Source: a virus
Reading direction: 5' to 3' (one strand)
DNA length: 38,456 bases
IMG/VR virus record: IMGVR_UViG_3300045988_124250
Shown here: one piece after another, positions 486 through 38,456 of the stretch
How positions within the stretch are numbered: the stretch's first letter is position 1
Layout of the letters: every line of letters starts with the position of its first letter
The notes under the pieces: model-generated
Seen by the model: only the letters and a program-made list of their open reading frames with translations
Told to the model about the DNA's origin: nothing
Databases searched by the model: none
Translations under genes and position numbers: made by a program

Positions 486-822
486 TTGAGTCCGAAGTCT
501 TTTGATTATTGTTTTATCTCCATAAAACTAGATTAAATAAACCTATTAGCGGGGTTTGATGAATATAGTTGTAAATAACGAATAATGAAACCTTATAATA
601 TTTTTTCTTAATAACAAAATGATTATGGTAGAATGATAAAAACTTTGAAAGAAAATGATGGAAGTTTGGTGCCCCCGCTCGGTACCAACTCATCACTCAA
701 TTTCATCGTTGTCGTCATCCTCTGAATTTTTCAAGATACCCTTTCTAAAAAACGTCGAGCCCAGGTATTCTAATCGCCAATTTCCCAAATGAAAAATACC
801 TGGGCCGACACGTTATTCGAAA

Positions 823-1197
823 TTAAATGCGAGAAATCCAGTCGTTGATGATTTCATCAACGGTTTTGCCCTTCTTGGTGGGCTTATCAGTTCTCGTCTC
901 AAAACGAAAACCGGGAATCTCAATCTTGAAATTGTGAGGGTCCTTATAGAACTTCAAGAAACTGTCCATTACCTTAATGACGTCCTCGCCCTTCAACTCT
1001 GCGCCCTTATAGCCGACATAGGCCGCATAGTCGTTGATAGCATCGGCAACCGCTTCCGCTCGGGCCATCTTTTCCTTGTCCTTCTTCTGGTCAGCATATG
1101 CCTTAGTGGCGTCATTCAGCATTGCAGTCATTTCCTTAGCAATATCCTCAGCGCTCTCGCCATTCATTAAGCGCGTCAGAATATCGTTCTTATTCAT
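823..1197 (-). CDS. hypothetical early protein (124 aa)
   Basis: ORF with an AAAGAGG Shine-Dalgarno 8 nt upstream of the ATG at 1197. Preceded by three tandem sigma70-like promoters. TAA stop. Confidence 0.6.
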   Translation of the reverse strand: MNKNDILTRLMNGESAEDIAKEMTAMLNDATKAYADQKKDKEKMARAEAVADAINDYAAYVGYKGAELKGEDVIKVMDSFLKFYKDPHNFKIEIPGFRFETRTDKPTKKGKTVDEIINDWISRI

Positions 1198-1229
1198 TAA
1201 AATAACCTCTTTTCATTTTGTATATACAT

Positions 1230-1258
1230 ATTATACAAAAAATTTTTTTAAAAGTCAA
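1230..1258 (-). promoter_or_regulatory. sigma70-like promoter TTGACT-N17-TATAAT (class with AAAAATTTTTTG spacer)
   Basis: Minus strand reads TTGACTtttaaaaaaattttttgTATAAT. The predicted start lies ~25 nt upstream of the SD of gene 823..1197. Confidence 0.6.
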
Positions 1259-1285
1259 GTGAGAAAAAAAATGGTTTTTTTTATC

Positions 1286-1314
1286 ATTATAACATAAATT
1301 TTTTTTTATGTCAA
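1286..1314 (-). promoter_or_regulatory. sigma70-like promoter TTGACA-N17-TATAAT
   Basis: Minus strand reads TTGACAtaaaaaaaaatttatgtTATAAT. Confidence 0.55.
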
Positions 1315-1469
1315 ACCGGGCGGTATATGGGTACCGAGCGGCGCTCGGTTTTGGGATTTTTGGGGCGCATATGAAGGCCGCTAGAATTACGGAAAATTTT
1401 CCATATGGGGGTACAGATCGGGAATTCGGACCGCAGCGCCCGCGCTCGGCCCGTTGTACCTCCCCTTTT

Positions 1470-1498
1470 AGTATACCACACCTGGCCCAATTTGTCAA
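1470..1498 (-). promoter_or_regulatory. sigma70-like promoter TTGACA-N17-TATACT preceding a 150 nt GC-rich leader
   Basis: Minus strand reads TTGACAaattgggccaggtgtggTATACT. It would transcribe the GC-rich palindromic segment 1320-1465. Confidence 0.5.
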
Positions 1499-1499
1499 T

Positions 1500-1543
1500 A
1501 GGCAAAATGAACAAAAATTAAGGGTGGATTTCTCCACCCTTAA
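1500..1543 (-). terminator. intrinsic terminator after the HD-domain gene
   Basis: Minus strand: stop TGA, then hairpin AAGGGTGGA-gaaa-TCCACCCTT, then AATTTTTGTTCATTTTG. Confidence 0.6.
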
Positions 1544-1545
1544 TT

Positions 1546-2154
1546 TCAATCCTCCCACGGCAGGTCGGGCGAAATTTCGTCCAGTTCCGCCTTGTCGTTA
1601 TAGTCAGCGGTGATTGCCGGAATGTCGATAAACGCTCGACTTGCCACATAGTCAGCCATGTGTACCAGTCTGTCGATAGGAGTGAAAGGTCTGTCCGCCT
1701 TGTTGGTAGTCCACTGACCCATGTGGGACTTGATGGCTTGTGTCAACTCATAGGGGCAGTCGCTCTCGAAAAAGACCAGCCACGAACGGCGTACTTGGTC
1801 AGCCGCCATTTCCCCGTGCTTGGGGTACAACTCCTTGTCGAACTCGTGTAAACCATACTTGGCTGTATCGTGGAGCAGACAGGCAACTCTTGCGTAGTCC
1901 TTGCGCTCGTCAGTGAGATACGCCCACTGGCTCATGCGGAGCAATTCCTCACAAAACCACGCGACCGCCTTAGTGTGGCGTACCAAACCGCCCTCGCCTT
2001 GACTCATAGCCGGATGGAACTTACCGGAAGAACTTGCGCCGATAGTCCAGAAATAGTCGGGAACGATACAGTCGAAGTAATAGCGCATGAATGAGCGCAA
2101 ATCCTCGGACTGAATGAACTCGATTTCGTGGTCAAAAAACTGGCTCTTATTCAT
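1546..2154 (-). CDS. HD-domain metal-dependent phosphohydrolase
   Basis: Contains ...ACLLHDTAKYGLHEF... (HD motif). Start chosen at the internal ATG 2154 with a GGAGG SD. The track ORF extends to 2304 but would overlap the promoter and hairpin. TGA stop. Confidence 0.6.
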   Translation of the reverse strand: MNKSQFFDHEIEFIQSEDLRSFMRYYFDCIVPDYFWTIGASSSGKFHPAMSQGEGGLVRHTKAVAWFCEELLRMSQWAYLTDERKDYARVACLLHDTAKYGLHEFDKELYPKHGEMAADQVRRSWLVFFESDCPYELTQAIKSHMGQWTTNKADRPFTPIDRLVHMADYVASRAFIDIPAITADYNDKAELDEISPDLPWED

Positions 2155-2280
2155 AGATGCCTCCGTGCTGTTGGTGGGTTCCAGCTCCCTCAGATTGTTT
2201 ATAGTATAGCGCATTTCGGGACAAAATGCAATAGTCAATTTATACAAACTTTCGCCGGAAAAATTGTTGAAAATGTGTAT

Positions 2281-2350
2281 TGACAAAAATGCCGGGCGCC
2301 ACATTCGTGAGCGCTCGACCCATTATACCACAGTCAGAGGGCGTTGTCAA
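2281..2350. promoter_or_regulatory. palindromic promoter-hairpin element (A-element, copy lacking the left TATAAT)
   Basis: ttgacaaaaatgcc-GGGCGCC-acattcgtga-GCGCTCG-acccATTATACCAca...tgtcaa. The minus strand carries TTGACA-N17-TATAATGGG reading into the hairpin. Confidence 0.55.
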
Positions 2351-2377
2351 TAGTCAAATTAAATAAAAAAATTGCTC

Positions 2378-2719
2378 TCAATCGAGAGCAATTTGGTAAG
2401 TTCGACGAATGGTAATTTCAACAGATTTCGGCTTCACAGGACACGCAAATCTGTCATTTCTCACAAACACGCCGTATCCCTTTTTCTGCCAGTTCTCACG
2501 ATTTTTGTCCTCGTATCGCAAAGTGTTATACTTGGAGAGCGGTAGCGAAAAATCGTAAATAAATTCAGAATTGCGCGGTAAACGGTGAACGGCGGTTTTG
2601 CGGTAGTTCCTCGTGTGTTCCTGTTGTCTGCGCTTTAAGTCGTTAGTCGTGCCTATTTTCAGAATGTAGACACCATTTTCATCATAATAGTGTCCAACAT
2701 ACAAAAATTCCTTGTTTTT
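2378..2719 (-). CDS. small standalone GIY-YIG domain protein
   Basis: ...NGVYILKIGTTNDLKRRQQEH... matches the GIY-(10)-YIG..N..KRR..H nuclease motif. The protein has no internal Met. The probable GTG start has a GAGGA SD; the track ORF uses TTG at 2776. Confidence 0.45.
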   Translation of the reverse strand, partial: KNKEFLYVGHYYDENGVYILKIGTTNDLKRRQQEHTRNYRKTAVHRLPRNSEFIYDFSLPLSKYNTLRYEDKNRENWQKKGYGVFVRNDRFACPVKPKSVEITIRRTYQIALD

Positions 2720-2772
2720 CACACTTTTTTCCTCGATTTCCGGGGAAAATGGGGGATTTCTCCCCCATTTTC

Positions 2773-3171
2773 TCAACTTTTCGGCTTGCGCTTCTGCACA
2801 AGCGTCAGTTCATAGGAATTTTCACCAACTGAAAACGCAATCTGTCTCTCTTTGTTGGTAATTTCCACATTTTCACAGGCATTTTCGCTGTTTTCGGTCA
2901 AAAATGTTGCCAATTCAGCGATAATAGCCGCTTTCGTGGGATTTGCCTTGCGCTCTCTCGTGGTGAATTTGTATGCGGTGGGGGTCTTGCGTGTGCCAGT
3001 CTTGGCGAATTTTTGAGCGATTTTGAGCTGTTCTTTCGACAGGTCAAAATCCTGTTTCTTGCCCTTGTCGATTTCTCGGTCAGAGTTCCACACGGCTTCC
3101 GCTTCATCGGCAGTCCAGCCCATTTTCGCCATAGCGTTTTTCAGCCATTCGGTTTTGGAAATGTCAGCCAT
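2773..3171 (-). CDS. hypothetical protein, paralog of 5319..5675
   Basis: Shares ...TPTAYKFTTRERKANPTK... with PTAYKFAPRERKANLTK in 5319..5675. TGA stop. Confidence 0.55.
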   Translation of the reverse strand: MADISKTEWLKNAMAKMGWTADEAEAVWNSDREIDKGKKQDFDLSKEQLKIAQKFAKTGTRKTPTAYKFTTRERKANPTKAAIIAELATFLTENSENACENVEITNKERQIAFSVGENSYELTLVQKRKPKS

Positions 3172-3232
3172 AAAACACCGCCTTTTCAGATTTTAGGGGA
3201 GAGAGGGGGAGAGGTTATCTCCCCCTCTTGTC

Positions 3233-3652
3233 TCACTTGGCGGTGAAATACGCCTTGCGCTTATCCTCGATACGCTCTGCCAGACCGTCAATGACCATCT
3301 GACGCACCAGAGAGGAAACCTTCTGATTGGACGCATCGGCGATAGCGGGGACAGACTTCATCAGAGCGGAGACGGTGTACTTCTCGCCCTTGTGGGCGTC
3401 CAGGAACGCCTTGATGTCAGCCTTGATACCCTCGTTTGCCAGCTGGGTGGCGGTGGGCTTCTTGTCCACGGTGTTCTTGCGGTCGAGCAGTTCCAGCTCG
3501 TGGTTCAGGAAGCCCGCCACATCAGCACCGGAAACCTTGACAGTGGCATCGCCCTTGGGAATGTCATAAGTGGCGTCCATATCCACCTTGGACAGAATGG
3601 CGGTGAAGTAGTCGCGCTTGGTCAGGCGCACAGAGGAAGTAGTGTTAGTCAT
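3233..3652 (-). CDS. hypothetical protein, paralog of 5729..6109
   Basis: C-terminus ...SNQKVSSLVRQMVIDGLAERIEDKRKAYF matches SNQKLSSLVRQMVLDKQVERVEDKRKAFF. Start MTNTTSS with the conserved AAAGGGTTGATACT-ATG initiation region. Confidence 0.6.
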   Translation of the reverse strand: MTNTTSSVRLTKRDYFTAILSKVDMDATYDIPKGDATVKVSGADVAGFLNHELELLDRKNTVDKKPTATQLANEGIKADIKAFLDAHKGEKYTVSALMKSVPAIADASNQKVSSLVRQMVIDGLAERIEDKRKAYFTAK

Positions 3653-3720
3653 AGTATCAACCCTTTCTGCGTTTTTAGGTGTCGCCCACCATATTGTTGT
3701 TTCCCTCTTGGAACATCTAT

Positions 3721-3749
3721 ATTCTAACACATATCCGAAGCCTTGTCAA
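3721..3749 (-). promoter_or_regulatory. sigma70-like promoter TTGACA-N17-TAGAAT
   Basis: Minus strand TTGACA at 3749-3744 and TAGAAT at 3726-3721, proximal to gene 3233..3652. Confidence 0.5.
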
Positions 3750-3916
3750 GACTTTTTTTCGGATTTGTGGAATTTTTTTAAGGTACACGCCCCGCCGGAA
3801 GGTCTTACCCTCTCCCTTGGAACAATTATATATTACCACACCCTTGGGCAAATTACAATAGTCAATACTCACAAAAAATGGGATTTTCAACATCTAAAAT
3901 TTGTGCAAAAAAACAC

Positions 3917-4011
3917 TTGACAAAATTTGTGCCGCGTGGTATAATGGAAATTTCGGGCGCCACGTTCGTGAGCGCCCGACCCATTATACCACATTTGAGC
4001 GCATTTGTCAA
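3917..4011. promoter_or_regulatory. 95 bp perfect-architecture A-element: convergent TTGACA-N17-TATAATGG promoters on both strands around a 7 bp GC hairpin
   Basis: Plus: TTGACA(3917)-17-TATAAT(3940)-GG-aaatttc-CGGGCGC-cacgttcgtga-GCGCCCG-accc-ATTATA(3983)-17-TGTCAA(4006). The whole unit is an extended inverted repeat. Confidence 0.65.
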
Positions 4012-4017
4012 TAGGCA

Positions 4018-4058
4018 AAATACACAAAAATAAACCAGCGTAGTTGGCTACTACGCTG
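4018..4058 (-). terminator. intrinsic terminator
   Basis: Minus strand hairpin AACCAGCGTAGT-agcc-AACTACGCTGGTT followed by TATTTTTGTGTATTTTG. Confidence 0.6.
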
Positions 4059-4384
4059 GTTCCCCTGTTGATGTTCGCCAGCCGTCCGGACAGCCAGCCC
4101 ACTTCTACACAGCAGACCCAAAACCGGGGCGCAAAGCCCATTATGGAGGGGTCTTTCTCGGCACGCGGTGAATGTGGTTAGAACTTCGTACCCAGTCCCA
4201 ATTTCTAACGAGAGGTTCAAGATGGCGGTTGAGAAGAAATTATTGAGTGGGACAAACACTCTATTAAACTCCATCTTGGCTGGGGCATAAATATAATCAA
4301 TCATTAAACTATCTAATCAAACAATGATTGACTACTAAGGTGGTCGATACAATCGCCATTTCATTTTTCTCACCTCACAATGTT

Positions 4385-4420
4385 AGTATAGCACAGGCGG
4401 AGCGGTTTGTCAAGAGTTTT
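4385..4420 (-). promoter_or_regulatory. sigma70-like promoter TTGACA-N17-TATACT flanked by CTCTTGACA inverted repeat
   Basis: Minus strand reads ctcTTGACAaaccgctccgcctgtgcTATACT. It heads a ~330 nt minus-strand transcript (4388 to 4060) with no credible ORF. Confidence 0.5.
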
Positions 4421-4422
4421 TT

Positions 4423-5103
4423 TCAAAATTCTAACTCGTCCTGAACGCCATAGCCAGAGAAATCGAGGATAACAGGAGAAATGCCAATGTATCCAATGTT
4501 TGAGCCGTGGAGGTCGTTTATGTGATACTTCTTGACGAACTCACAGAGGGCGATAACCTTGCGCTTACCGTAGAGGGAAACGGCGACTTTTGCCCACAAT
4601 CCATCGAGGTCGCGCCCATAGCCATTTTGGTCTGCCTTGCGGAACTGTCGCTCAATCTGATTAACTCGGCAGTCAGGAACAGTCTTTGCGATACGGACGA
4701 GACGCCCTTGCAGTCCGCCCTCTGCCCAGCAGATTTTATGAGCACTGTTAGTAATAATCTGTTGAGCAGTGAACGCAATCGCTTCACCATCACGAGGGGA
4801 GACAATGTAGCCAGCCAACATAGTGGCGGGGAAAAAATCGGCGAGGTTGGCGTCTACGGCTTTCTGATACACAGCCACTTCCCGCTCTGCGTCCCGCGTC
4901 TCCATAGACCATTTGAGAACATAGCCCAATTCAGGGAACACCAGACATTCCTTGGTCGCACCGTTGCTGGTGACTATCTTGACATTAGGATATTCGTTGT
5001 GAATAACGCGACACAAATCGTCAGCGCACTTGACCAGTCTCGGCTTTTCAGATACCGCCTGCTGAATGGTCAGGATAAAATCCTGAACTCTCGGAAACTC
5101 CAT
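4423..5103 (-). CDS. hypothetical early protein (226 aa)
   Basis: AAGGAG SD 8 nt before the ATG at 5103. TGA stop. No motif recognised. Confidence 0.6.
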   Translation of the reverse strand: MEFPRVQDFILTIQQAVSEKPRLVKCADDLCRVIHNEYPNVKIVTSNGATKECLVFPELGYVLKWSMETRDAEREVAVYQKAVDANLADFFPATMLAGYIVSPRDGEAIAFTAQQIITNSAHKICWAEGGLQGRLVRIAKTVPDCRVNQIERQFRKADQNGYGRDLDGLWAKVAVSLYGKRKVIALCEFVKKYHINDLHGSNIGYIGISPVILDFSGYGVQDELEF

Positions 5104-5179
5104 CGTTCATCGCTCCTTTCAGTATCATCATTATAACACATTACAGGAGAATTACAATAGGTAAAATGCACAAAATTTT

Positions 5180-5276
5180 GCGGAAAAAATTTCTGAAATT
5201 GTATAATGTGCCGAAAACCGGGTGCCAGGACCGTAAGCGCCCGGCCGATTATACCACACGCGCTCTGATTTGTCAA
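5180..5276. promoter_or_regulatory. A-element copy
   Basis: TATAAT(5202)...CCGGGTGCC-aggaccgtaa-GCGCCCGG...ATTATA(5248)-17-TGTCAA(5271). The minus-strand promoter drives 4423..5103. Confidence 0.55.
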
Positions 5277-5318
5277 TAGGTAAAAATGCATAAAAAAAAT
5301 GAGGGAGATTTCTCTCCC

Positions 5319-5675
5319 TCACTTGCGCGGACACGACAGCACAACCTTGTATTTTGTTCCATCAAGCGTGAATAAAAATTCGCGCTCCGCGTTGCTCATG
5401 TTCAGGTCAGTCGCGCCGTATGTGGTCAGTGTCTCGGTCAGCAAGGTGATAATGCCCTGCTTCGTGAGATTAGCCTTTCTTTCTCTTGGTGCGAACTTGT
5501 ATGCGGTCGGCTGGCGTCCTACTCCACGCGCTTTCTTGCTTGCCTTTTCCTGTTCCTCGGTCAGCGGAAACGGATTGCCGCCCTTGTCGATAATAGCATC
5601 TTGGACAATAATATCCTTGGCTTCGGCTTCGGTGCAATCCAGCTTTCGCATAAGGTCGGCAATACGCTCATTCAT
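5319..5675 (-). CDS. hypothetical protein, paralog of 2773..3171
   Basis: Start MNERIADL with an AAGGAG SD. TGA stop. Confidence 0.55.
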   Translation of the reverse strand: MNERIADLMRKLDCTEAEAKDIIVQDAIIDKGGNPFPLTEEQEKASKKARGVGRQPTAYKFAPRERKANLTKQGIITLLTETLTTYGATDLNMSNAEREFLFTLDGTKYKVVLSCPRK

Positions 5676-5728
5676 GCGCTTACTCCTTTCGGGGATAGGG
5701 TGGGGATTTCTCCCCACCCTTGGGCGGT

Positions 5729-6109
5729 TTACTCGCTCACCTTGCGGAAGAACGCCTTGCGCTTATCCTCCACGCGCTCCACCTGCTTGTCCAGCACCAT
5801 CTGCCGAACGAGGGAGGACAGCTTCTGATTGCTCATGTCCTTGCAGACGGGGAACTCTTTGAGCATCTCGCTGATGGAATACAGGCGGTCGCGCTCCATA
5901 GCGGACAGGACAGTGGTCTTGATGACCTCATTCTCCTGCTGGGTCTTGGTGGGCTTCTTGTCCACGGTGTTCTTGCGGTCGAGCAGGTCGATTTCGTGGG
6001 TGATGAACTCCACCAGCTTGGGGTCAGCCTTAACCTCGGACAGTTTCAGCAGGGCGGTGAAATTGTCGCGCTTGGTGGGCTTGCGGGTGGTGGTGTTAGT
6101 GTTAGCCAT
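5729..6109 (-). CDS. hypothetical protein, paralog of 3233..3652
   Basis: Start MANTNTTT with the AAAGGAATTGATACT-ATG initiation region. TAA stop. Confidence 0.6.
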   Translation of the reverse strand: MANTNTTTRKPTKRDNFTALLKLSEVKADPKLVEFITHEIDLLDRKNTVDKKPTKTQQENEVIKTTVLSAMERDRLYSISEMLKEFPVCKDMSNQKLSSLVRQMVLDKQVERVEDKRKAFFRKVSE

Positions 6110-6149
6110 AGTATCAATTCCTTTCTCCATTTGGTTTTGAGGGCTTTGC

Positions 6150-6750
6150 CCTCCTGACATTATCTATTATAACAGCTTGCGCTGGGATTGTCAAGAGTTT
6201 TTTTCAAAATTCTTGATTTTTTTTGATAGTGCCAACAGGGGAACGCTCCACAAGTATTCACAACGACTTACTGCCCCGACCTGACGGATAAAGTCTTGCC
6301 GTGTTATTGCGTCGCAGTCCGGTTAGAGGTTCCGGTCTGTCCCTTGCTCACATCATGCTCATTTTCCGTTCAACGTATGGCCTTACCGCGCTGGTGTAGG
6401 GCCTACTTCCTTTACTTTCGCACGGTTCGCGACCCGCGGATTTCTTGGGTGGGGCTGTTCCCCTCTTGACATTATCAATTATAACACAGGTGCTGGGGAT
6501 TGTCAAGAGGTTTTTTGAAATTTTTTCAAATTTCTGAAACCTGTCTACATAGGTGACACATTAGACGCATCTGCCGTGCCATTCCCCTCTTGACATTATC
6601 CATTATAGCACAGGTGCTTGGGATTGTCAAGAGGGAAAATGCGGGTCAGTTACCGAGTTATCACACCCGCCAGCGTGGCTCTTGCGAGGCGACTTGCTGT
6701 TCCCTCTTGACATTATGTAGTATAACACAGGTAGGCATGGATTACAATAG
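6150..6750 (-). repeat. array of four tandem ~50 bp promoter repeats (CTCTTGACA-N29-TGTCAAGAG inverted-repeat units) with ORF-free spacers
   Basis: Units lie at ~6150-6200, 6455-6512, 6585-6640 and 6700-6750. Each reads on the minus strand as ctcTTGACA-atccc(a/c)agcacctgtg(t/c)-TATAAT; the last copy is degenerate. No ORF of 60 aa or more on either strand between 6160 and 6945. Confidence 0.6.
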
Positions 6751-6805
6751 GTAAACTATACAAGTTTCGGGAAAAATAAATAAAAAAATTTGTGCAAAAA
6801 AACTC

Positions 6806-6900
6806 TTGACAAAATTGCTGACGGGGTGTATAATGGTGAATTCCGGCCGAGACGCGCGAAATCGGCCGGCCATTATACCACACCCAGGCGCATTTGTCAA
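6806..6900. promoter_or_regulatory. A-element copy with a different hairpin sequence but the same architecture
   Basis: TTGACA(6806)-17-TATAAT(6829)-GG-...CCGGCCGA-gacgcgcgaaa-TCGGCCGG...ATTATA(6872)-17-TGTCAA(6895). The stem sequence differs from A3, so the stem-loop is maintained as structure rather than as primary sequence. Confidence 0.6.
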
Positions 6901-6945
6901 TAGGTAAAAATGCATAAAAAATGAGGGGAAAATCCCCTCATTTTT

Positions 6946-7479
6946 TTAGTCTATCTGACAAGCGAGAAATGCGTCCCGCTTTTCGTTCAGGTTTGCGATT
7001 TCGCCCGCCAGCGCGTCAGCCCTCATAGCCAACAGACGCCCATAGCCCTTGCGCCAGTTCAGCATACCAGCGGGATTGACCGTGTAAATAAGCTTCTCCT
7101 TTTCCACGGTCTTGGTGTCCTTGCGCTCAACGCGGAAGTCCTGACCATTCAGAGCCAGCAGAGCGGACTGTGCCACTTCCGGCAAACGCATCCAGTTGTA
7201 CTCGGTCATCAGGGCGTTGCCATTCTTGTCAATCATCCAGCTTTCCGCGTCCCACGGGTCGAGCTTGATTTCCTTGGTGGTCTGTTCGGTGCGTACCACC
7301 TTAATGATACCCTCGTCCCGCAGGAACGACAGGGAATTGTAGGTGTACCGCCGGTAGTCGTGCTTTGCTTTGGAGAAGTCCTCGGAAGTGAACTCCTTGT
7401 TTCCGAACAGGTCTACCAGCCATTTGTAGGTCTTGACCGTGCGGTTGAAATTTCTGAGGTTAGCATAGCGAGCTTTCAT
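6946..7479 (-). CDS. hypothetical early protein
   Basis: Start MKARYANLRNF with a GAAAAGGAG SD. TAA stop. Confidence 0.55.
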   Translation of the reverse strand: MKARYANLRNFNRTVKTYKWLVDLFGNKEFTSEDFSKAKHDYRRYTYNSLSFLRDEGIIKVVRTEQTTKEIKLDPWDAESWMIDKNGNALMTEYNWMRLPEVAQSALLALNGQDFRVERKDTKTVEKEKLIYTVNPAGMLNWRKGYGRLLAMRADALAGEIANLNEKRDAFLACQID

Positions 7480-7592
7480 AGTTTTTTCTCCTTTTCTATT
7501 GGTGGGGCTTACCATCGTTTCCCCTACCTTGAATTTGTAATGTTATTATAGCATGGAATGGGGGCGTTGTCAACCCCCATTCCAAACTTTTT

Positions 7593-7808
7593 TTACGGGG
7601 TGTCGTGCTTGCGGTATTCAGTCAGGTCAGGGTCGCCAATCCATTCGGAAAAATCAACCCAATAGTCGAACACATGGAGAATTTCGATTTCATCAGGTTC
7701 AAACACCCCGCCACAACAGGCGCAGATTACAAAACCGTTTTCAAGCTGAATACCAGCTTGAACACCATCGGAATGGTCGCCCTTAAAAAGCACTTGCTTA
7801 ATAGGCAT
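7593..7808 (-). CDS. small Cys-containing protein (71 aa)
   Basis: AAGGAGG SD. Contains ICACCGGVFEP. Confidence 0.5.
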   Translation of the reverse strand: MPIKQVLFKGDHSDGVQAGIQLENGFVICACCGGVFEPDEIEILHVFDYWVDFSEWIGDPDLTEYRKHDTP

Positions 7809-7875
7809 TTCGCTTACCTCCTTGTCTTAGTATAGCCATTATACCACATGAGAAAGGGGCTGTCAAGCCCCAATC

Positions 7876-30876: not shown

Positions 30877-31464
30877 ATGGGAACTAAATTCACTGATATT
30901 TATAATCGCTTCCTTGGGAAAATTACTGATGACCTTTATATTGAATTAACTCCAGAAGATACAATTAAAGATTTACGTGCAATACTTCTAAATATTTTAC
31001 CTGAATTTGAATTTCCTAGATTTGATATTTATGACTATACTATTGATTAGGAAATTAAATATGAAAATGAAATATTAGAAGATGATTTTGTAATTGGTCT
31101 TTTGTGGGAAGATGAAAAAGATGAAGAATCAGAAATCCGCCCTCCTCGTGTAATGATAGAACATTCATCTTTTGGAGCTGAATTAACACCGGAGGAAATT
31201 AATATTTTAGCTATATTGATGATGGTAAATTGGGTATAGCGCCAAGTTACTTCTATTGAACACACTCGTATGAAGTATAGTGGTTCAGATTTTAAAATGA
31301 CTTCATAGGCTAATCATTTACAAAAATTGATGTCTTTACTGAGTGAATGTTAGAGACAATCATTTCATATGCAACGTTTATATAAACGTCGTAAATTAGT
31401 AGAAGGGAAATACGAATCCAATTGGGGCGTATTTCATTATAAAAATTATCCTTATGATAACTAA
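30877..31464 (+). CDS. hypothetical structural (connector region) protein; 4 in-frame TAG
   Basis: AGGAGG SD. Read through codon by codon to TAA at 31462. Confidence 0.5.
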
Positions 31465-31492
31465 ATATCATACAGATATTTCCGATGAAGTC

Positions 31493-31753
31493 ATGGAAAA
31501 AAATATAGTAAGATTAACTAATCAACTGTGGAAATTAATCCCTATGAGAGAAAATGAAGAAGATTGGGATAAACAATTAAATACAGTTATTATTGAAATT
31601 GCGGGCTTAAATGAAATTTTTATTTAGGACCCGCGATTTTTATAGTTGCTTAGTAAATTAGAAGGATTAAATGTTTTAAATGATATTGAATTCTCAATTT
31701 ATAGAAAAACTGTATTTGAATGTATTAGTTTATTATAGGAGATTAGAAAGTAA
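31493..31753 (+). CDS. hypothetical small protein; 3 in-frame TAG
   Basis: Read-through ORF of 86 codons. Its stop overlaps the next start (TAATG). Confidence 0.4.
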
Positions 31754-32907
31754 TGCCAAAACGTCCAGAAAGAATGGAAAAATTATTACCTTATGGTTTA
31801 AATACTAATAAAAGTGTAAATCTTGTAGGGGCTCGTTTAGGTGATACAAGTATAAAAATTCCTTAGCCAGATTCAGTTGATGGTAGTTTAAATATGGCTA
31901 AACGATTAATGAGTGCGGGTGGTTTTGCCCAACAGTAGCGAATGATCAAAGATAAACGACATTCGTTAGATCAAGCCACTAAGTATTCTTATTAGGCGGC
32001 TTGGGTACGTAAATGTGCAGCTACAGAGGTAGAAACTAAATAGGAAAAAAATATTTTACCTCCAGTTAGAGCATTAATGAATCCTAATAAATTAAAATAG
32101 GATTATGATGATAAAGTTATTTCGATTGGATTTGAACATAAATTTAATTGCGGAGATGTATTTGAATGGTGTAATACTGGAACATATTGGTTAATTTATT
32201 TACAAGATTTAGATGAATTAGCTTATTTCCGCGGAGATGTTCGTAGATGTACTTATTAGATTCCATTTATGATGGATGATGAATTAAATGTAGTTTATGT
32301 GGCTAGTCGAGGCCCAGTAGAAACTAAAATTGATTATATTCAAAAACATACTACTAGTGTAGATAATCCAAATTATTCTTTAAATTTATTAATTCCTAAA
32401 AATGAAAAAACTTTGAAATTTTTTAAGCGTTATTAGAAGTTTTATATTTGGCCGGAAGATGGGTCAGTTTATGATACCTGCTGGAGAGTTGAAGCTGTAA
32501 ATAATATTAGCATGACTGGCGTTATTGAAGTAAACGCTGTTGAATATTATGCTAATGAATTTACTGATGATCGAGACGCAGGATTAGCTGATGTATTTAA
32601 AATACCCGATCCAATATTAAAACGTAAAATTATAGATGATAACAAAGATAATAATAAAATTTTAAATATTGTTGGTGAAACCTTTATTAAACCTAAAAAA
32701 GAATATGATTTTAATTTAAATATTAAAAATATTCGAGGGACTTGGAAAATTGAAGGTAATGATGTTCCTGTTCAAATTATTAGCGAAGGAACTAATGATA
32801 AAGGATTTGCAACAATTAAACTTAAATGGGATTCTACTTATAGTGGTTAGTTTGATTTAGTTTATGGAACTAGTCGAAAAACTATAGTAGTAGAATCATT
32901 GTTTTAA
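31753..32907 (+). CDS. hypothetical structural protein; ~8 in-frame TAG
   Basis: Track ORF 32512..32850 is the C-terminal fragment in the same frame. TAA at 32905. Confidence 0.5.
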
Positions 32908-32929
32908 TGAGTAAAAGGAGATTGAAAAC

Positions 32930-33532
32930 ATGAGAATAGACGGATATCATATTCCAAAATCAAGTTTTCTATCTATGGAAAAAGACACTGGGATTATTGT
33001 TAATGAAATATTAAAAAATAATCGTTTAAAAAAATTATTATATTATACCACTAGTGATGCTATGGAAAAACCTAATCTTACTGAAGATTAGTCTTTAAGT
33101 TTACTAGGGACTAATATTAAAATAGTTCCTAAATTATATGTTGATGGTTCTGTTTTAAATTATGTATTAATTAATTTTGATAATTTTATTCCCAGTGAAA
33201 ATCCAGAGTTTAGAGATAACACTATTCAATTTGATATTGTATGTCATTTTGATCAATGGAATTTAAGAGATTATGCATTGCGCCCATATAAAATTGCTGG
33301 AGAGATTGATTCAATGTTCAATTTGAAAAAATTGACTGGTATTGGTTATTTAGAATTTGTGGGTGCGACTTAGATTGTTTTAACCGATGAATTTGCTGGG
33401 TTATGTTTGATGTATCGCACTGTTCATGGTGGCGAAGATGAAAAATATATGCCAACTTATCCTGATAAAAATAGCGGCAAAATTAAAGAGGAACAATTTA
33501 TTAAAGAATTCAAGGATTACATTAGTAAATAA
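32930..33532 (+). CDS. hypothetical structural protein; 2 in-frame TAG
   Basis: AAAAGGAG SD. TAA at 33530. Confidence 0.5.
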
Positions 33533-34260
33533 TGGATTACCGCTTAAATTTAATTTGCGGAACTGATATGTTGATTCCTGAATGTAATTTAGTCGCTCAT
33601 CAACCAAGGATAAAAGAAATTTCATTTATTGGGGAATCTGATTTTTTTATTGGAGCATAGACCCTCTGTTTGCATAAAACAATGTTTATAGAGGACAAAA
33701 CTATTCTAGACAGTATCAATAATTTTTAGATATTTATGACGATAATGTTATAGGATGAAACAAAGGATAAAAAAGCTAACATTTTAAATGTTTTAAATTT
33801 ATTATTCCCATCATACAAAATAAATGTGACGCCGAATTCATTGTTATTTATGAAGGAAGGTGTTCCTCCAATTACAGTAGATGGAAATAATTTTGAAGCA
33901 TTACAAGAAGTGTTGCGTTTAATCTTTTGTATGCACAATGGCCCGATGGATTAGTAGGCTTTCAATCCTGCCAACGATAAGGCTCGTGAGATTGCTCAAA
34001 AGCTAATGCGAGGGAGACAGCGAGTTGCCGCCCAAAACGGTAATTCGAATGTAAGTGTTTTTAGTTAGTATATGTCAATCTTGACTATTGGATTGTGTTC
34101 AATGTCATTATAGGATTTGACAAATCTGACAATGTTCCAATTATATGATTTAATGGAGAGATATACGCTATATACTGCTTGGGACCTGGATGTACGCTAG
34201 CGTTTAGCTGGCGGTAAACCTGAAGGGACCCCGGATAATTGGATGAAAAACATTCATTAA
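33532..34260 (+). CDS. hypothetical protein; 9 in-frame TAG, including a TAG-TAG doublet
   Basis: The start overlaps the previous stop (TAATG). ...MHNGPMD-(TAG)(TAG)-AFNPANDKAREIAQKLMRGRQRVAAQNG... TAA at 34258. Confidence 0.4.
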
Positions 34261-34287: not shown

Positions 34288-35364
34288 ATGAAATTCGGTG
34301 TCCGCGAAATTTGTGATGTTGTATTAAAGGCTAAGTCAGCACAGAAAATCGGTAATAAGGTGTTCTATGCTGGTGAACCTGTTATTTATTTTGACACCCT
34401 GAAAACTTCTAGTTTAGAAGGTGCTGCTACCACTGTATATGCACAAGGTGGTCGTGGTAACTCTCGTTTGGTAGCATGGGAAGGTGAAAGAACTCTGACC
34501 TTCACTATGGAGGATGCTCTAATTTCTCCTGAAGGATTTATGATTCTTTCTGGTGCTGGCCTAATTGCTGCTAATGCCGATAAGCCAATCTATCAGCATA
34601 TTACTGAGACTGTTGATGCTAGTGATTCATTACGTTTCAAGTTTGATGCTACTGGATTTAAGTTTGCCGTTTATACTGAGAATAAGCCTTATCTACCTGG
34701 TAATGCTGGTGATAACTTTGCTTATGTAATGTTTATGAAGAATGGTGAAATTACTACTGAGCCTTATATTCCTGTTCATGAGGGTGATGATACTGCTATT
34801 GATAGTGAAGCTATGCCTGAGACTGTAACTGACCTAGATGGTAAAACCTACTATCGTGTAGCTGTTATGGATCATAAAATGTATGTTGGTTTAGCTTCTT
34901 ATGAAGATGAGCAGAATAAAGGACATAAATATGAGAGTGAAAGTGGCGACCCGGCTTACGATGTAGTCACTCTACCAAATCGTCTAAAGTTTGATTCTGT
35001 GCTAGTTGATTATTATACTGAGCGCAAGTCTGGTGCTACTCAGATGGAAATTACTGCTGATAAGTTTGGTGGCAACTATTATCTTGAGGCTTCTACTCTA
35101 TTCCGTGATACTAACGGTGTAGATATGCCTGCTGAATTCATTATTCCTAACTGCAAGATTCAGTCTAACTTCACCTTTACTATGGCTTCTTCTGGTGACC
35201 CAAGTACATTTACTTTCACCTTAGACGCATTCCCTGATTACACTCGTTTCGATCATAGTAAGAAAGTTTTGGCTGCAATTCAAGTAATTGAATATCTGGA
35301 TAATGATGACTTACATCGTCATAGTACAGTTCACCAGAAATCTCACGATAGTTATAATTGGTAA
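34288..35364 (+). CDS. putative major tail protein (358 aa), TAG-free
   Basis: AAGGAGG SD. Followed by a strong terminator. Lies upstream of the two chaperone-position genes and the tape measure. No TAG codon. Confidence 0.5.
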   Translation: MKFGVREICDVVLKAKSAQKIGNKVFYAGEPVIYFDTLKTSSLEGAATTVYAQGGRGNSRLVAWEGERTLTFTMEDALISPEGFMILSGAGLIAANADKPIYQHITETVDASDSLRFKFDATGFKFAVYTENKPYLPGNAGDNFAYVMFMKNGEITTEPYIPVHEGDDTAIDSEAMPETVTDLDGKTYYRVAVMDHKMYVGLASYEDEQNKGHKYESESGDPAYDVVTLPNRLKFDSVLVDYYTERKSGATQMEITADKFGGNYYLEASTLFRDTNGVDMPAEFIIPNCKIQSNFTFTMASSGDPSTFTFTLDAFPDYTRFDHSKKVLAAIQVIEYLDNDDLHRHSTVHQKSHDSYNW

Positions 35365-35383
35365 TTTAATTAAAAAATTTTAT

Positions 35384-35420
35384 GGGGAGAGGATTTATTC
35401 CTCTTCCCATTTTTTTATTT
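35384..35420 (+). terminator. intrinsic terminator, near-duplicate of the 30207 terminator
   Basis: GGGGAGAGGA-tttatt-CCTCTTCCC followed by ATTTTTTTATTTT. Confidence 0.75.
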
Positions 35421-35433
35421 TAGGAGAAAAAGA

Positions 35434-36525
35434 ATGGTTAATCAAGAAGGCATAGTTTTTGGAGGATATTTTTTATATGAAGCAGAATTTAAAAAAATCT
35501 TTCAAGAATTTTGGAATAGTGAATTAAAAAATATTTTTATTGAAAAAATATAGATTATAATTAAAAATTATCTAACTGAAGTAAATGGTAATATATTGGC
35601 AGCAAAAAATCCAAAAGCATTATATAATTCTTGGGAATAGATTAATACTGAAGTATTTGGAAATACTCCAGTTTCTTTATTGGGTATTTTAAAATGGGAT
35701 AAAGAATATCATTATACTTTTGTTAACAAAGAATCTGATTTAATAAATAGCTATACTTCTTAGAAAATACAAGTTAATAAGACATTAATGAAAGAATACC
35801 GAACAACTTTAAATACAATATATTAGAGTGATATTGAAATGGCATTAGAAAAACATTTTGAGGATATGAAAAATTCAATTAATAAAGTGAAATTAACTAA
35901 GGTAGAAGGGCATAATATACATTTAGCTTTAGGTAAATATTATAAAAATACAGAATGGTATAAACGAGTTCAAGATACACATATGACTAATAAGAGTTTA
36001 TTTGATATATTTTATAGTGGGAATAAAGTAGCTGCGCAAGGATAGATGTATGATGCTTTTATTAATCATATTAGTAGAAAACATGTAGAATATTTAAGAG
36101 CTTTAAATAATTTAGAAAATCCTATAATAGTTTCTCCATTCGAGAAATCGGTTTATAATGAAGAGGGGCGTTGGAATTTTATCCAATTAGTTATGGATTC
36201 TTTAAATTCGACGGCTTGGTATCGTGGAGGCGATGCTATTGCGGCGGATAATCGGACTCGTAAAATATTATTTAATATTTAGGTAAAATCAGGAACAAAA
36301 GGACGTAGTTGGGATATTGCTAGTATTTAGTTTTTAACTTTTATTAATACTTTAAATTCTTATTTAAATAAAACGGGTTAGGACATAGCGACATTTTTAT
36401 ATGAAAATTTAAAAATTACAATGGCGACATCTATTGATAGCAAAAAAATTGATGAAGATTTGGAAAAAGAAATTTTAGATAATGTAAGAAAAAATTTGAA
36501 ATTATCTGGGTTGACAATAAACTAA
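35434..36525 (+). CDS. hypothetical protein at the tail-assembly-chaperone position; ~8 in-frame TAG
   Basis: TAGGAG SD. Track fragments 35839..36045 and 36046..36282 are in the same frame. TAA at 36523. Confidence 0.45.
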
Positions 36526-36569
36526 TTTTTTAGTATAATATAAATAAGTGTAAAAGGAGGATTTTTGAA

Positions 36570-37094
36570 ATGGCAAAAGTATCATTTTCAAAGTTAAATT
36601 TAAATAAAAATACAGAAGTATCAACATTTGAATGGGGAGATTAGATTATTGAAGTTAAGGATTACCTTCCTATTGGAGATAAGTTAAATCTTATTTCAGA
36701 GATTATTAATGATTCTATTGATAAGAATGGTTATTATAACCCTGCTCGTGTATATCTTCATACTATTTTAAAAATGATTATGGCATATACAAATGTAAGT
36801 TTCACTGACAAGCAAAAAGAAGATCCAAAGAAATTATATGATTTAGTAGTAGGCTCTGGTTTTTCTGCTAAGGTGTTTGGAGAAATTAATCCAGGAGAAT
36901 ATGCACAAATTAAAAGTTGGGTCGCGGAAACTATTCATTCAATTTATGAGTATAAAAATTCTGCGGCAGGTATTTTAGATATTATTTCTACTGATTATAA
37001 AGATACAACATTTGATATGGAGCAATTAACTAATGATATTCAGAATCCTGAAACATTAGGATTGTTAAAAGATGTTTTGACCAAGTTGGGATAA
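36570..37094 (+). CDS. hypothetical protein at the tail-assembly-chaperone position; 1 in-frame TAG
   Basis: AAAAGGAGG SD. Track ORF 36774..37094 is the C-terminal part. Followed by a terminator. Confidence 0.5.
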
Positions 37095-37151
37095 TTAAAC
37101 TATTTAATTTTTTAAAATTAAATAGGAATAATCAAGTGTATGGGTGTGAGA

Positions 37152-37190
37152 AGATTATTTCTCACACCCATTTTTTTTTGTTTATATTAT
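37152..37190 (+). terminator. intrinsic terminator
   Basis: GGGTGTGAGAA-gattattt-CTCACACCC followed by ATTTTTTTTTG. Confidence 0.7.
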
Positions 37191-37210
37191 GAGAGAAAGG
37201 AGTCCCGTTT

Positions 37211-38456
37211 ATGGCAAAACAACTAAATGTCGCATTAGATTTTACTGCGAATACCACACAAGCAAAATAGCAGATTTAGGAATTACAGCAGTTATTAACT
37301 AAAGTAGCATATAGTACTGATTTAGGTATTGATCCCAGTCAAATGAAAGAAGCTTCTGCGGCGGCTAAAGAACTAGCTATTCATTTAAATGAAGCATATA
37401 ATTAGAAAACTGGTAATTATGATTTAAGTAAATTAAATGCTAGTTTAGCTAAATCAAAAACTAATGTGACTGAATTATCTACCAGCTTACTCCAAGCGGG
37501 AACAACTGGACAACAAGCATTTATAAAATTAGCTCAATCAATAGCAGCTGCTGATTAGCCAATGATTACATTAAATGCTCGTTTATAGGATTTTTTAACT
37601 ACTGTTAAAAATACAGTTAAATGGCAAATTTCTTCAAGTATGATTCATGGTGTAATGGGAGCTTTACAAGGAGCTTATCATTATGCTTAGAATTTAAATA
37701 GTTCATTAAATGATATTCGAATTGTTACTGGTCATAATATTGACTATATGGATAAATTTGCTGATAAAGCAAATAAAGCAGCAAAGGCATTAAGCACTTC
37801 TACATTAAATTATACTGATGCTTCTTTGATTTACTATCAACAGGGCTTGTCAGACAAAGAAGTAGAAGATAGAACTGCGGTCACAATTAAAATGGCTAAT
37901 GCTGCTGGCGAAAGTGCAGATAAAATATCAGATCAATTAACTGCTGTCTGGAATAACTTCTATGATGGATCATAGTCATTGGAATATTATGCTGATGTTA
38001 TGACTGCATTAGGTGCAGCTACTGCATCAAGCACAGATGAAATAGCAGCAGGATTAGAAAAATTTGCAGCTGTGTCTAACACAGTAGGTTTAAGTTATGA
38101 ATATGCTACTTCAGCTTTGGCGACTGTAACTGCTACGACTCGTCAATCTGCTGATGTGGTTGGTACTGCATTCAAAACATTATTTGCTCGTATTCAAGAT
38201 TTAGAGTTAGGTAAAACTCTTGATGATGGTACTACATTAGGCAAATATTCTCAAGCTCTTGAAACTGTTGGTGTTTCTATTAAAACAGCAGACGGTGGGT
38301 TGCGAGAGATGGATGATATTCTTGATGATTTAGGTGAAAAATGGAATTCATTTGACGCTGAAGGGAATCCATTAATTTCTAAAGATGCTAAAGTGGCATT
38401 AGCTCAAACTGTTGCTGGTGTTCGTCAATATACACAATTAATGGCATTAATGGATA
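37211..38456 (+). CDS. tail tape measure protein, N-terminal part (continues beyond the window); at least 7 in-frame TAG
   Basis: AAAGGAG SD. ...DKFADKANKAAKALSTSTLNYTDASLIYYQQGLSDKEV...DEIAAGLEKFAAVSNTVGLSYEYATSALATVTATTRQSADVVGTAFKTLFARIQDLELG... is the typical tape-measure core. Confidence 0.65.

Follow-up and report, generated by a model that had tools for sequence, protein, structure and literature searches.

The 38,456-bp stretch of viral DNA analysed here (IMG/VR record IMGVR_UViG_3300045988_124250; hereafter the window) raises the question of why a phage should use the codon TAG throughout most of its virion genes while keeping it out of a block of small genes at the other end of the same stretch, and out of its major capsid protein (MCP) and tail tube genes. 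A sequence-only reading of the window had described two compartments, a standard-code-compatible early module and a TAG-recoded late module, and had proposed that recoding gates late expression in time and that the change in G+C content between the modules reflects a mosaic origin. Codon usage separates three classes of genes, and the pattern probably reflects two decoding regimes and an exception set by expression level, the temporal gate being a by-product and the G+C step the boundary between codon regimes. Read in reverse, the window coincides with the final 38,456 bases of a 201,374-bp ENA contig (ERZ28619677 OBRE15-1_SAMN03283272 scaffold_15), and belongs to a siphovirus-like human-gut phage with a genome of ~200 kb, an SPbeta-type virion module and distant kinship to phage phAss-1. 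It covers the block of early genes and the start of the virion operon, and is a well-resolved case of an already known phenomenon.

TAG is read as glutamine in the virion operon

Between 20.4 and 38.5 kb the plus strand is fragmented under genetic code 11; with TAG read as sense it contains 18 contiguous, packed open reading frames (ORFs), preceded by AGGAGG-type ribosome-binding sites. Plus-strand ORFs of at least 150 aa sum to 4333 aa with the standard code; making TAG a sense codon raises this to 9402 aa, making TGA one to 5590 aa and making TAA one to 6910 aa. Recoding of TGA or TAA was rejected, as the gain in late ORFs was far smaller than with TAG and the gains on the minus strand were spurious frames in GC-rich DNA. 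In standard-code orthologues, glutamine occupies 150 of 258 positions aligned with a TAG of the window (CAA at 103, CAG at 47), followed by glutamate (27) and lysine (21), and the phage therefore reads TAG as glutamine (code 15). In recoded relatives, reading TAG as sense raises ORF coverage from 0.45-0.69 to 0.92-1.00.

Fourteen late genes hold 73-77 in-frame TAGs (the range reflects the choice of start codons), or about one per 62-64 codons, and the G+C content of the late part is 32%, so that the initial description of these genes, as riddled with TAG at ~33% G+C, stands. TAA terminates all 17 complete late genes except that for the MCP (TGA, 30177-30179). The TAGs are spread uniformly along the late genes (mean relative position 0.46), and the enrichment near 5′ ends that would be the signature of a gate was not seen.

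Genes fall into three codon classes

By codon usage and G+C content at the three codon positions (GC1, GC2 and GC3), the genes fall into three classes, not two:

Early genes: GC1/2/3 0.50/0.36/0.61; CTG, ATC, GAC, CAC, GGC, CGC, CCC, ACC, CAG and AAG; no TAG
Bulk late genes: GC1/2/3 0.41/0.31/0.20; TTA, AAA, GAA and CAA; 73 TAGs
Four virion genes (the gene at 28123, the MCP gene, the gene at 30268 and the tail tube gene; hereafter the top class): GC3 0.28; one TAG

The early class consists of 34 minus-strand genes (823-17122; 49-226 aa; 3511 codons in all), each preceded by a Shine-Dalgarno (SD) sequence. They were re-called with SD-guided starts and their coordinates mostly agree with public calls where these are present. 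TAG occurs in them 32 times out of frame and never in frame, compared with ~37 in-frame occurrences expected at the share of glutamine codons that TAG has in late genes (Fisher p = 1.3e-15). They end in TAA (20), TGA (13) or TAG (1), the last in a 102-aa gene (13741-14049, minus strand) with a TGA five codons on, in which TAG acts as a stop codon for this class. No hidden N-terminal extension crossing a TAG was found in any of the 34 genes. The claim of a TAG-free early block without hidden extensions thus holds for these genes but fails for one more, a GIY-YIG/NUMOD homing endonuclease gene (9157-9900, minus strand; G+C 0.38, GC3 0.24 in the downstream part) in which one in-frame TAG adjoins the YIG motif on its 3′ side and has to be read through, and which is present or absent by strain. 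Mean G+C content of the whole GC-rich block (800-18300, minus strand) is 46%, lower than the ~50% originally given. Any-frame ORF coverage was too noisy as a measure of hidden recoding in the early regions of relatives, as standard-code relatives give the same small differences.

In the bulk late genes, 37% of glutamine codons are TAG and 12 of 196 are CAG. The top class favours GCT (share 0.81), CGT (0.74), ACT (0.75), CCT (0.72), GGT (0.63), ATT (0.90), AAG (0.79) and CAG (0.68), a pattern resembling strong translational selection in low-GC Bacillota. Synonymous codon use correlates at 0.13 between early and bulk genes and at 0.70 between bulk and top genes; codon usage of TAG-free and TAG-rich genes, a comparison that the sequence-only reading had called for, is thus distinct. 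As a control for composition, the ratio of leucine codons TTG and CTG was used as a proxy for T-first versus C-first preference. This predicts ~20 TAGs in the early genes (none observed), 12-25 in the top class (one observed) and 127-192 in the bulk genes (73 observed), figures that over-predict the bulk genes and serve as an order-of-magnitude guide only. They suggest that TAG in the bulk genes is no commoner than composition allows, and that the early and top classes have been actively cleared of it.

Gene by gene and on both strands, low GC3 goes with TAG, as in the GIY-YIG endonuclease gene inside the early block and in an AbrB/MazE-like gene to the right of it, the first of four low-GC minus-strand genes:

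18739-19053, minus strand: AbrB/MazE-like gene, G+C ~30%, one in-frame TAG
19058-19351, minus strand: DUF7352 gene, G+C ~30%
19353-19670, minus strand: gene with G+C ~30%, TAG-free as called (two TAGs sit solely in an upstream extension of the ORF, outside the called gene)
19854-20252, minus strand: gene with G+C ~30%

Because the AbrB/MazE-like gene holds an in-frame TAG, use of TAG is not confined to the plus strand. The sharp G+C discontinuity noted at the outset is real; it lies at ~18.4 kb, 2 kb ahead of the strand switch (20.3 kb), and composition changes within ~200 bp at both ends of the block. A tandem direct repeat (TTTTTTCAATTyrGATAACGGTAGAAC, two copies, ~18540-18600) was seen by eye just past the step.

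The same association extends beyond the window. A same-species contig continuing to the left carries an operon of 22 GC-moderate minus-strand genes without TAG, and between this operon and the early block lie three low-GC plus-strand genes with three, one and no TAGs. About 45 kb to the left of the virion operon (contig L154, 531-5946), six genes on the early strand have GC3 of 0.09-0.13 and 0-6 TAGs each. In phAss-1, re-analysed here, low-GC3 genes are TAG-rich, including an ORF of ~3150 aa with 110 TAGs, and the MCP gene (GC3 0.58) has none. A simple two-compartment genome is therefore refuted by the low-GC minus-strand genes with TAG and by the mixed clusters beyond the window; since TAG tracks GC3 there and on both strands, strand is the wrong axis and codon regime the right one. 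One of the products encoded by L154 (478 aa) has a CxxxCxxC motif and looks radical-SAM-like (SAM, S-adenosylmethionine) by eye.

The MCP and tail tube genes avoid TAG

The TAG-free virion genes lie among TAG-rich neighbours:

28123-29055, plus strand: gene upstream of the MCP gene, 310 aa, one TAG, CAG preferred, G+C 0.40
29073-30179, plus strand: MCP gene (Pfam YonB; PHROG 4088), 368 aa, no TAG, CAG 10 versus CAA 2, G+C 0.41
30209-30247, plus strand: strong intrinsic terminator after the MCP gene, GC-rich stem of ~14 bp followed by T8
30268-30855, plus strand: 195-aa gene, no TAG
30877-34260, plus strand: five TAG-rich head-tail genes, including YomW (32930) and YomV (33532)
34288-35364, plus strand: tail tube gene (Pfam YomU_Tube), 358 aa, no TAG, CAG 6 versus CAA 2, G+C 0.39
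35382-35410, plus strand: strong intrinsic terminator after the tube gene

The five genes at 30877-34260 contain 25 in-frame TAGs with public starts, or 27 with a longer start of the third gene. At the local TAG density, the Poisson probability of finding none is 0.003 for the MCP gene, 0.004 for the tube gene and 0.047 for the 30268 gene (joint 5.5e-7). The absence of TAG from the three genes is thus as first described, and shortness does not account for it in the MCP and tube genes; for the 30268 gene alone it is marginally significant, and relatives mostly have 0-2 TAGs there. With the 28123 gene included, which was joined to the top class post hoc on its codon usage, the four virion genes differ from the bulk late genes in TAG versus CAA plus CAG (Fisher p = 4.7e-6). 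Higher G+C content (0.36-0.41 in the TAG-free virion genes, 0.25-0.34 in other late genes) and preferred codons, both part of the first description, are likewise present. Strong terminators of their own, also attributed to all three, follow the MCP and tube genes, but there is none 3′ of the 30268 gene.

Avoidance of TAG in the MCP and tube genes is real, statistically solid and kept in relatives. In recoded lineages the MCP gene has no TAG in most and 1-2 in four, and in these lineages the terminase gene mostly has 4-14 and the portal gene 2-13. The tube gene has none in all eight recoded relatives on contigs of metagenome-assembled genomes (MAGs) in which it was found, while the adjoining YomV gene has 3-11. 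Raised G+C content of the MCP gene is common to relatives, including standard-code ones. A horizontal origin of the two genes was rejected, as high G+C and absence of TAG are shared by relatives; the suggested comparison of their origin with that of the TAG-rich neighbours revealed no separate source, the ranking of relatives by identity tracking that of neighbouring genes.

A suppressor tRNA and a phage tRNA set matching the bulk genes

Searches for tRNA genes gave none in the window or the adjoining 10 kb. In same-species contigs (201 kb and 39.5 kb), 26-29 tRNAs form an array ~56 kb away from the virion operon, on the strand of the early genes; this array was reached by walking same-species IMG/VR contigs and then with a transporter gene as anchor. 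It includes tRNA(CUA), between tRNA-Gln(UUG) and tRNA-Tyr (L328:16257-16328 and L329:15562-15633), with its own promoter (TTGACA-17-TGTATAAT) ~85 bp upstream, of the same consensus host type as those of the early genes. From these contigs, the phage species appears to carry the suppressor, which is presumably charged with glutamine. A sister lineage has a suppressor at the syntenic place. Synteny around nrdD of phAss-1 led to close kin of phAss-1 alone, the exact suppressor 30-mer of the sister lineage is absent from the lineage of the window, and a pattern scan of metagenomes led to other relatives only.

The array provides U34 tRNAs for the A-ending codons TTA, AGA, ATA, CAA, GAA, ACA, TCA, CCA, GGA, GCA, GTA and CTA. 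Over the L, R, S, P, T, A, G, V, I and Q families, exact pairing with a phage tRNA is available for 58% of codons in bulk late genes, 30% in early genes and 37% in the top class.

Unusual members of the array are Phe(AAA), Ile(AAU) and Ile(UAU). The tRNA genes (L328 1-21176, L283) are interspersed with a dicarboxylate/amino-acid:cation symporter gene (PF00375; cluster of 682 near-identical sequences), genes for a papain-like peptidase C1, a formate/nitrite transporter-like protein and several GIY-YIG and HNH endonucleases, a YcaO and radical-SAM-like pair, and a gene of 50 aa that faintly matches ArfA (ribosome rescue).

Relatives share the junction and differ in recoding

Matches to the MCP protein fall in 270 blocks of the assembly collection, and those to one early-block protein in 60; of the contigs listed, the longest (198-201 kb) come from human-gut metagenome assemblies. 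The GC-rich block and the virion operon occur on one contig in L011, L012, L013 and L015. Their junction is shared by at least four independent assemblies (different samples and different assemblers; carrier contigs mostly 95-201 kb) and is also present in IMG/VR contigs. The left edge of the window is the end of the contig, and other assemblies continue straight past that point.

Searching IMG/VR with the first late protein gave 300 relatives. Of these, 80 were retained (68-99% identity), and promoters and G+C content were compared over 38 distinct loci. Some relatives use the standard code (no TAG in nine orthologous late genes), some are lightly recoded (1-4 TAGs per gene) and others are heavily recoded, and gene order stays constant between those with no TAG, few TAGs or about one per 60 codons. 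A promoter-rich early block precedes the virion operon in all 38 loci, including standard-code ones and at adjacent-gene identities down to 68%, with 2-18 perfect promoters per ~8 kb. The difference in G+C content between early and late genes ranges from 0.00 (L087 and L088, both standard code) to 0.13 (a strain of the lineage of the window), and correlates with TAG load (Spearman 0.47, p = 0.003, 38 loci, phylogeny being ignored). GC3 of the early gene encoding an NT5C-like protein (8646-9092, minus strand) is 0.70 in the window and 0.33-0.39 in low-gap relatives, at 56-58% amino-acid identity. With the junction widespread, the gap graded from 0 to 0.13 and GC3 of early orthologues spanning 0.33-0.70, early and late composition appear to have diverged in place, without import of a block.

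No DNA-level similarity to cultured phages, phAss-1 included, was detected by megablast against the phage collection. The MCP protein is 58% identical to that of an unannotated 12-kb fecal fragment (MT836163), 50% to that of phAss-1 (OQ749652) and 41% to those of Enterococcus phages EF1 and VRE9 (~140 kb), with weak tblastn matches in SPbeta-like Staphylococcus phages; phAss-1 is matched by an early-block protein as well. Assignment of a host through GTDB genomes was rejected, as all 37 matches (Mollicutes, Lachnospiraceae, Bacteroidales, Gastranaerophilales and others) are on contigs of MAGs or metagenome bins, many of phage length, with unrelated taxa, and composition-based mis-binning looks likely; none of the genome-contig matches lies on DNA that could be recognised as a bacterial chromosome. 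In the ~110 kb examined there was no sign of an integrase. One IMG/VR record (IMGVR_UViG_3300032167_000002, 402,311 bp; L061 and L069) contains the first late gene twice, ~200 kb apart and in different versions (72% and 74% identity with the query), and is probably two related genomes concatenated.

The early block is an array of host-type promoters

At 1-20 kb of the window, 92 sigma-70-type sites were counted, compared with 38 +/- 6.5 in shuffled sequence. Perfect promoters (TTGACA-17-TATAAT, mostly with an extended TG) number 24 over both strands, with ~14 more at 11 of 12 positions, spanning 17.5 kb. The minus-strand promoters amount to about one per gene and, with many intrinsic terminators, delimit largely monocistronic units; five perfect promoters on the plus strand of the block face the opposite way. 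The host sigma-A-type promoters, the small monocistronic genes and the likeness to the takeover modules of phages SPO1 and T5 (see below) suggest that the block is expressed early.

1230-18181, minus strand: promoter array (TTGACA-17-TGnTATAAT), ~33 sites, 19 at 12/12 and 14 at 11/12
1546-2154, minus strand: HD-domain protein
2378-2722, minus strand: T5orf172-like protein
7876-8532, minus strand: weak DnaQ-like protein, 218 aa
3917-4011, 6806-6900, 10032-10126, 14360-14456 and 15379-15474, both strands: face-to-face promoter cassettes
16351-18005, no strand: nine copies of the 20-bp palindrome ATTGTTAAnnnnTTAACAAT

In each of the five cassettes, perfect promoters on opposite strands converge on a GC-rich hairpin of 35-39 nt, with no SD sequence or ORF following. 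Half-copies lie downstream of minus-strand promoters at 5276, 2350 and 1498. Seven aligned copies share a 9-bp stem with compensatory changes at four pairs. The same architecture is found in same-species contigs (4-5 per locus) and in distant relatives, including standard-code ones and phAss-1. Rfam, at gathering thresholds, gave no match in the window, cassettes included. The cassettes could produce tiny sense/antisense RNAs, could act as a sink for RNA polymerase or an insulator, or could supply 5′ stabiliser hairpins. Another possibility is that the cassettes constitute a novel type of phage small RNA or an element that captures RNA polymerase. We know of no counterpart of these convergent-promoter hairpin cassettes.

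The nine copies of ATTGTTAAnnnnTTAACAAT compare with 0.07 expected by chance, and seven are concentrated in ~0.8 kb (17223-18005), largely where non-coding DNA separates the final early gene from the G+C step. They look like operator or iteron sites. The AbrB/MazE-like gene, encoding a DNA-binding protein, adjoins this array. Gene content of the early block varies between strains, homing endonucleases included.

Organisation of the virion operon

The virion operon starts at a perfect promoter, and the order of YonG_N, terminase, portal, YonD_N, YonB, YomW, YomV, YomU and tape measure genes shows SPbeta-type synteny (Pfam and PHROG). Pfam families matched, in order, were YonG_N, YonD_N, YonB, YomW, YomV_2nd (weak) and YomU_Tube, with portal, terminase and tape measure from PHROG. 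Apart from the genes around the MCP and tube listed above, the features are:

20311-20283, minus strand: divergent near-perfect promoter opposite the virion-operon promoter
20367-20395, plus strand: perfect promoter (TTGACA-17-TATAAT) before the first gene of the operon
20424-21485, plus strand: first late gene, 353 aa, 4 TAGs, helical, C-terminal CxxC...CxxC zinc ribbon
21528-22724, plus strand: YonG_N protein, 5 TAGs
22726-24459, plus strand: large terminase, 10 TAGs, including codons 4, 11 and 32
24470-24826, plus strand: HNH endonuclease, 2 TAGs
25037-26500, plus strand: portal, 8 TAGs (9 with the longer start at 24839)
26512-28104, plus strand: YonD_N protein, 3 TAGs
35434-36525, plus strand: tail gene, 8 TAGs
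36570-37094, plus strand: tail gene, 1 TAG, own consensus promoter at 36511 and terminator at 37140-37171
From 37211, plus strand: N-terminus of the tape measure (protein of ~2780 aa), 7 TAGs inside the window

The packaging and head genes (21528-28104) have GC3 of ~0.2 and every one of them stops at TAA. No lysis genes were found in the window.

The first late gene matches PHROG 5767, named 'sigma factor' (E = 2e-53), a label that could not be verified. Its family gave 6896 matches at E < 1e-5, among them one homologue named 'antirestriction protein' in a JGI record. The protein has no sequence match in Pfam, NCBIfam or the PDB. A Foldseek search of the PDB with its AlphaFold2 model (predicted local distance difference test score, pLDDT, 70), which is helical and ends in a zinc ribbon, gave nothing significant. 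The name 'sigma factor' was therefore not adopted, being unsupported by the Pfam, NCBIfam, PDB and Foldseek searches.

Decoding regimes, gating and the origin of the G+C step

Rival accounts of the step invoke recombination, misassembly or a cause at the level of DNA or RNA outside translation. Import of a GC-rich block from a standard-code phage or host of higher G+C content, whose composition has not yet drifted, would fit the sharpness of the composition steps (~200 bp at both ends), the GC-richer intergenic DNA of the block, its strain-dependent gene content with homing endonucleases inside, and the lack of similar DNA among cultured phages. However, the block and its promoter array occupy the same position in 38 of 38 loci of relatives, the G+C excess is graded rather than present or absent, and early orthologues such as the NT5C-like gene vary in GC3 across lineages. 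A second GC-moderate, TAG-free operon lies beyond the window, phAss-1 shows the reverse arrangement (mostly 45-50% G+C with low-GC, TAG-rich patches), and the higher G+C content of the MCP gene is shared by relatives, standard-code ones included. The mosaic origin of the two halves put forward by the sequence-only reading is thus poorly supported, the GC-richer intergenic DNA being what leaves it some weight, and we regard it as very unlikely. An assembly chimera of a 46% G+C phage and a 32% G+C phage, which a large step in a single metagenomic contig might bring to mind, is next to impossible and was ruled out, since independent assemblies and IMG/VR contigs share the junction and low-GC genes that use TAG lie on both sides of the GC-rich block and inside it. 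The DNA expressed first might instead be GC-rich for a reason unconnected with translation (escape from silencing by nucleoid proteins, avoidance of restriction or nuclease sites, stability of early mRNA, or GC-biased gene conversion), TAG being absent from it through the need for the standard code alone. Intergenic G+C content (0.40 in the block, 0.29 elsewhere), the density of GC-rich hairpins and terminators, and turnover of genes between strains, which suggests frequent recombination, are consistent with such a cause. The excess is greatest at third codon positions, however, phage tRNAs match bulk and not early codons, which points to translation, and in some relatives the promoter array occurs without any G+C excess. 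We consider this account very unlikely.

A purpose-built gate, in which TAGs are kept in late or lysis genes to block premature translation and the early genes are TAG-free so as to set the switch, is the alternative closest to the original proposal, and one we judge rather unlikely. The TAG-free early block next to a TAG-rich operon is what it predicts. Its strongest single support is the first late gene, where four TAGs lie behind a perfect host-type promoter, and the TAGs at codons 4, 11 and 32 of the terminase gene would also serve a gate. The recoded homing endonuclease among early genes parallels a recoded intron endonuclease that Borges et al. (bioRxiv 10.1101/2021.08.26.457843) describe within an early gene, and in crAss-like phages the metaproteomic data (PMC9523058) agree with code 15 being used late. 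Against it, TAGs are not concentrated at 5′ ends, the TAG load of each gene goes with its GC3, also for non-structural genes on the early strand, and the MCP and tube, probably the main late products, are ungated, a state conserved in relatives. The promoter-rich early block and the virion operon are also found, with no TAG at all, in standard-code relatives, and the suppressor is under a consensus host-type promoter, so that any delay would amount to its accumulation time only; the window contains no lysis genes to which the lysis-specific version would apply. Part of the original idea survives, in that early genes are compatible with the standard code and virion genes are not; temporal partitioning is supported, and the timing is compatible with a gate. 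TAGs lie evenly along genes and depend on GC3, the probable main products are ungated, standard-code relatives share the architecture and the suppressor has a host-type promoter; together these points suggest that gating is a consequence of the pattern and not a selected function. A gating effect may exist, but the pattern can be explained without it.

Under the account of two decoding regimes, which we consider the probable one, early genes would be expressed right after infection with host RNA polymerase, tRNAs and release factors alone, and would retain GC3-rich codons that presumably resemble those of the host. TAG would still terminate translation at this stage and would have been purged from them. 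As the phage tRNAs accumulate, tRNA(CUA) among them, AT-rich bulk genes with A-ending codons and TAG would become translatable; there, TAG would be a plain glutamine codon, probably derived from CAG by AT-biased mutation and tolerated. The MCP gene, the tube gene and their two neighbours are presumably translated more heavily than other late genes, and they carry the signature of strong codon selection. Avoidance of TAG in the MCP and tube genes could be due to competition of suppression with release factor 1, truncated products being costly at high output, and the terminators behind these two genes may raise the relative dosage of their mRNA. A temporal gate would then be a by-product, possibly used secondarily, and not the cause.

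Several observations weigh against this account. Intergenic DNA is also GC-richer in the early block (0.40 versus 0.29), which codon selection alone cannot explain, and the preference for C-ending codons in early genes and T-ending codons in the top class demands the extra assumption that the latter is tuned to a mixed pool of host and phage tRNAs. The correlation of G+C gap with TAG load takes no account of phylogeny. The suppressor was seen in same-species contigs (checked genes 97-99% identical at the protein level) and not in the window. Early and highly expressed status is deduced from promoters, gene type and codon bias, and the likeness of early codons to those of the host is an assumption. 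The first late gene combines a perfect host-type promoter with four TAGs, as it would under a true gate.

A broader formulation, 'translational autonomy', is offered tentatively as a possibility: only genes read before the 26-29 phage tRNAs accumulate would stay bound to host codons, the rest having drifted to ~30% G+C and absorbed TAG, and the virion genes that are probably translated most would be tuned to a mixture of host and phage tRNAs. Were this so, the early-late gap in GC3 should track both the difference in G+C content between host and phage and the extent of recoding across the family, early codon usage would predict a host in a mid- to high-GC lineage of Clostridia, and the family, with its standard, lightly and heavily recoded members, would be a natural series for an evolving change of code. 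Why partial recoding evolves is debated, the choice being between regulation and neutral drift after gain of a suppressor tRNA. Here TAG is excluded from two classes for two reasons, timing in one and probably expression level in the other, and TAG use, GC3 and the phage tRNA repertoire shift together, which favours relaxed codon constraint and mutation bias as the drivers of recoding. Since standard-code and code-15 genes are interleaved at the level of single genes, gene callers need to assign the code more finely than per contig.

Comparison with known systems

Stop-codon-recoded phages were reportedly described by Ivanova et al. in 2014, and such phages of the gut by Yutin et al. in 2021. 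As in other recoded gut phages, TAG is reassigned to glutamine with a tRNA(CUA), recoding is partial, virion genes are recoded and putative early genes are compatible with the standard code, G+C content is low in the recoded part and TAA is strongly preferred as stop. Partial code-15 recoding, standard-code early genes and phage suppressor tRNAs have already been published (Borges et al., bioRxiv 10.1101/2021.08.26.457843; Peters et al. 2022, PMC9523058), as has a recoded homing endonuclease among early genes (Borges et al., Agate phage). Unlike crAss-like and Lak phages, this phage has strong SD sites and an SPbeta-type virion module, the latter recognised by its syntenic Yon/Yom set (genes alone). 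The tail tube gene avoids TAG here, whereas a tube family is preferentially recoded in crAss-like phages (Borges et al.). The three-class structure, the GC3 gap (0.61 versus 0.20) with its tRNA match, the conserved avoidance of TAG in the MCP and tube genes, and the promoter array with convergent-promoter hairpin cassettes are not reported by Borges et al. or Peters et al.

The closest described recoded genome is that of phAss-1, from the human gut and with a suspected Clostridia host, in which TAG is read as glutamine and which has 36 tRNAs, three of them tRNA(CUA), and 41 TAG-containing ORFs (Babkin et al. 2023, PMC10607447; OQ749652). On re-analysis it shares the link of GC3 with TAG, the TAG-free MCP gene and the face-to-face cassettes. 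Its consensus promoters are confined to the strand of the tRNA, replication and small-gene regions and are densest at the tRNA/small-gene end. It is 136 kb long at 44.5% G+C, compared with ~200 kb for the phage studied here, in which the clusters examined outside the early block (the virion operon and flanks) are low in G+C. Codon classes, the promoter array and the MCP exception do not feature in the phAss-1 report (PMC10607447). The two phages are related above genus rank, and the phage of the window falls outside the 'Phassvirus' group proposed there (no megablast match, 50% MCP identity, ~200 versus 136 kb).

Clustered small genes, each with a strong host-sigma consensus promoter, are the likeness to the takeover modules of SPO1 and T5 that forms part of the basis for suggesting early expression of the block; the terminal-redundancy module of SPO1 and the first-step-transfer region of T5 both consist of many small genes with strong host-sigma promoters on one strand. 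None of the early-block proteins matches a known early protein of SPO1 or T5. In T4-type and other phages, early genes lean on host decoding and phage tRNAs match codons enriched in late genes (Mioduser et al. 2017, PMC5683454; Sf14, PMC12482277). Unlike in those phages, the contrast here is visible as a 14-point step in G+C content and extends to a reassigned stop codon. To our knowledge, this contrast in codon usage between early and late genes is far larger than that in T4-type phages or Sf14.

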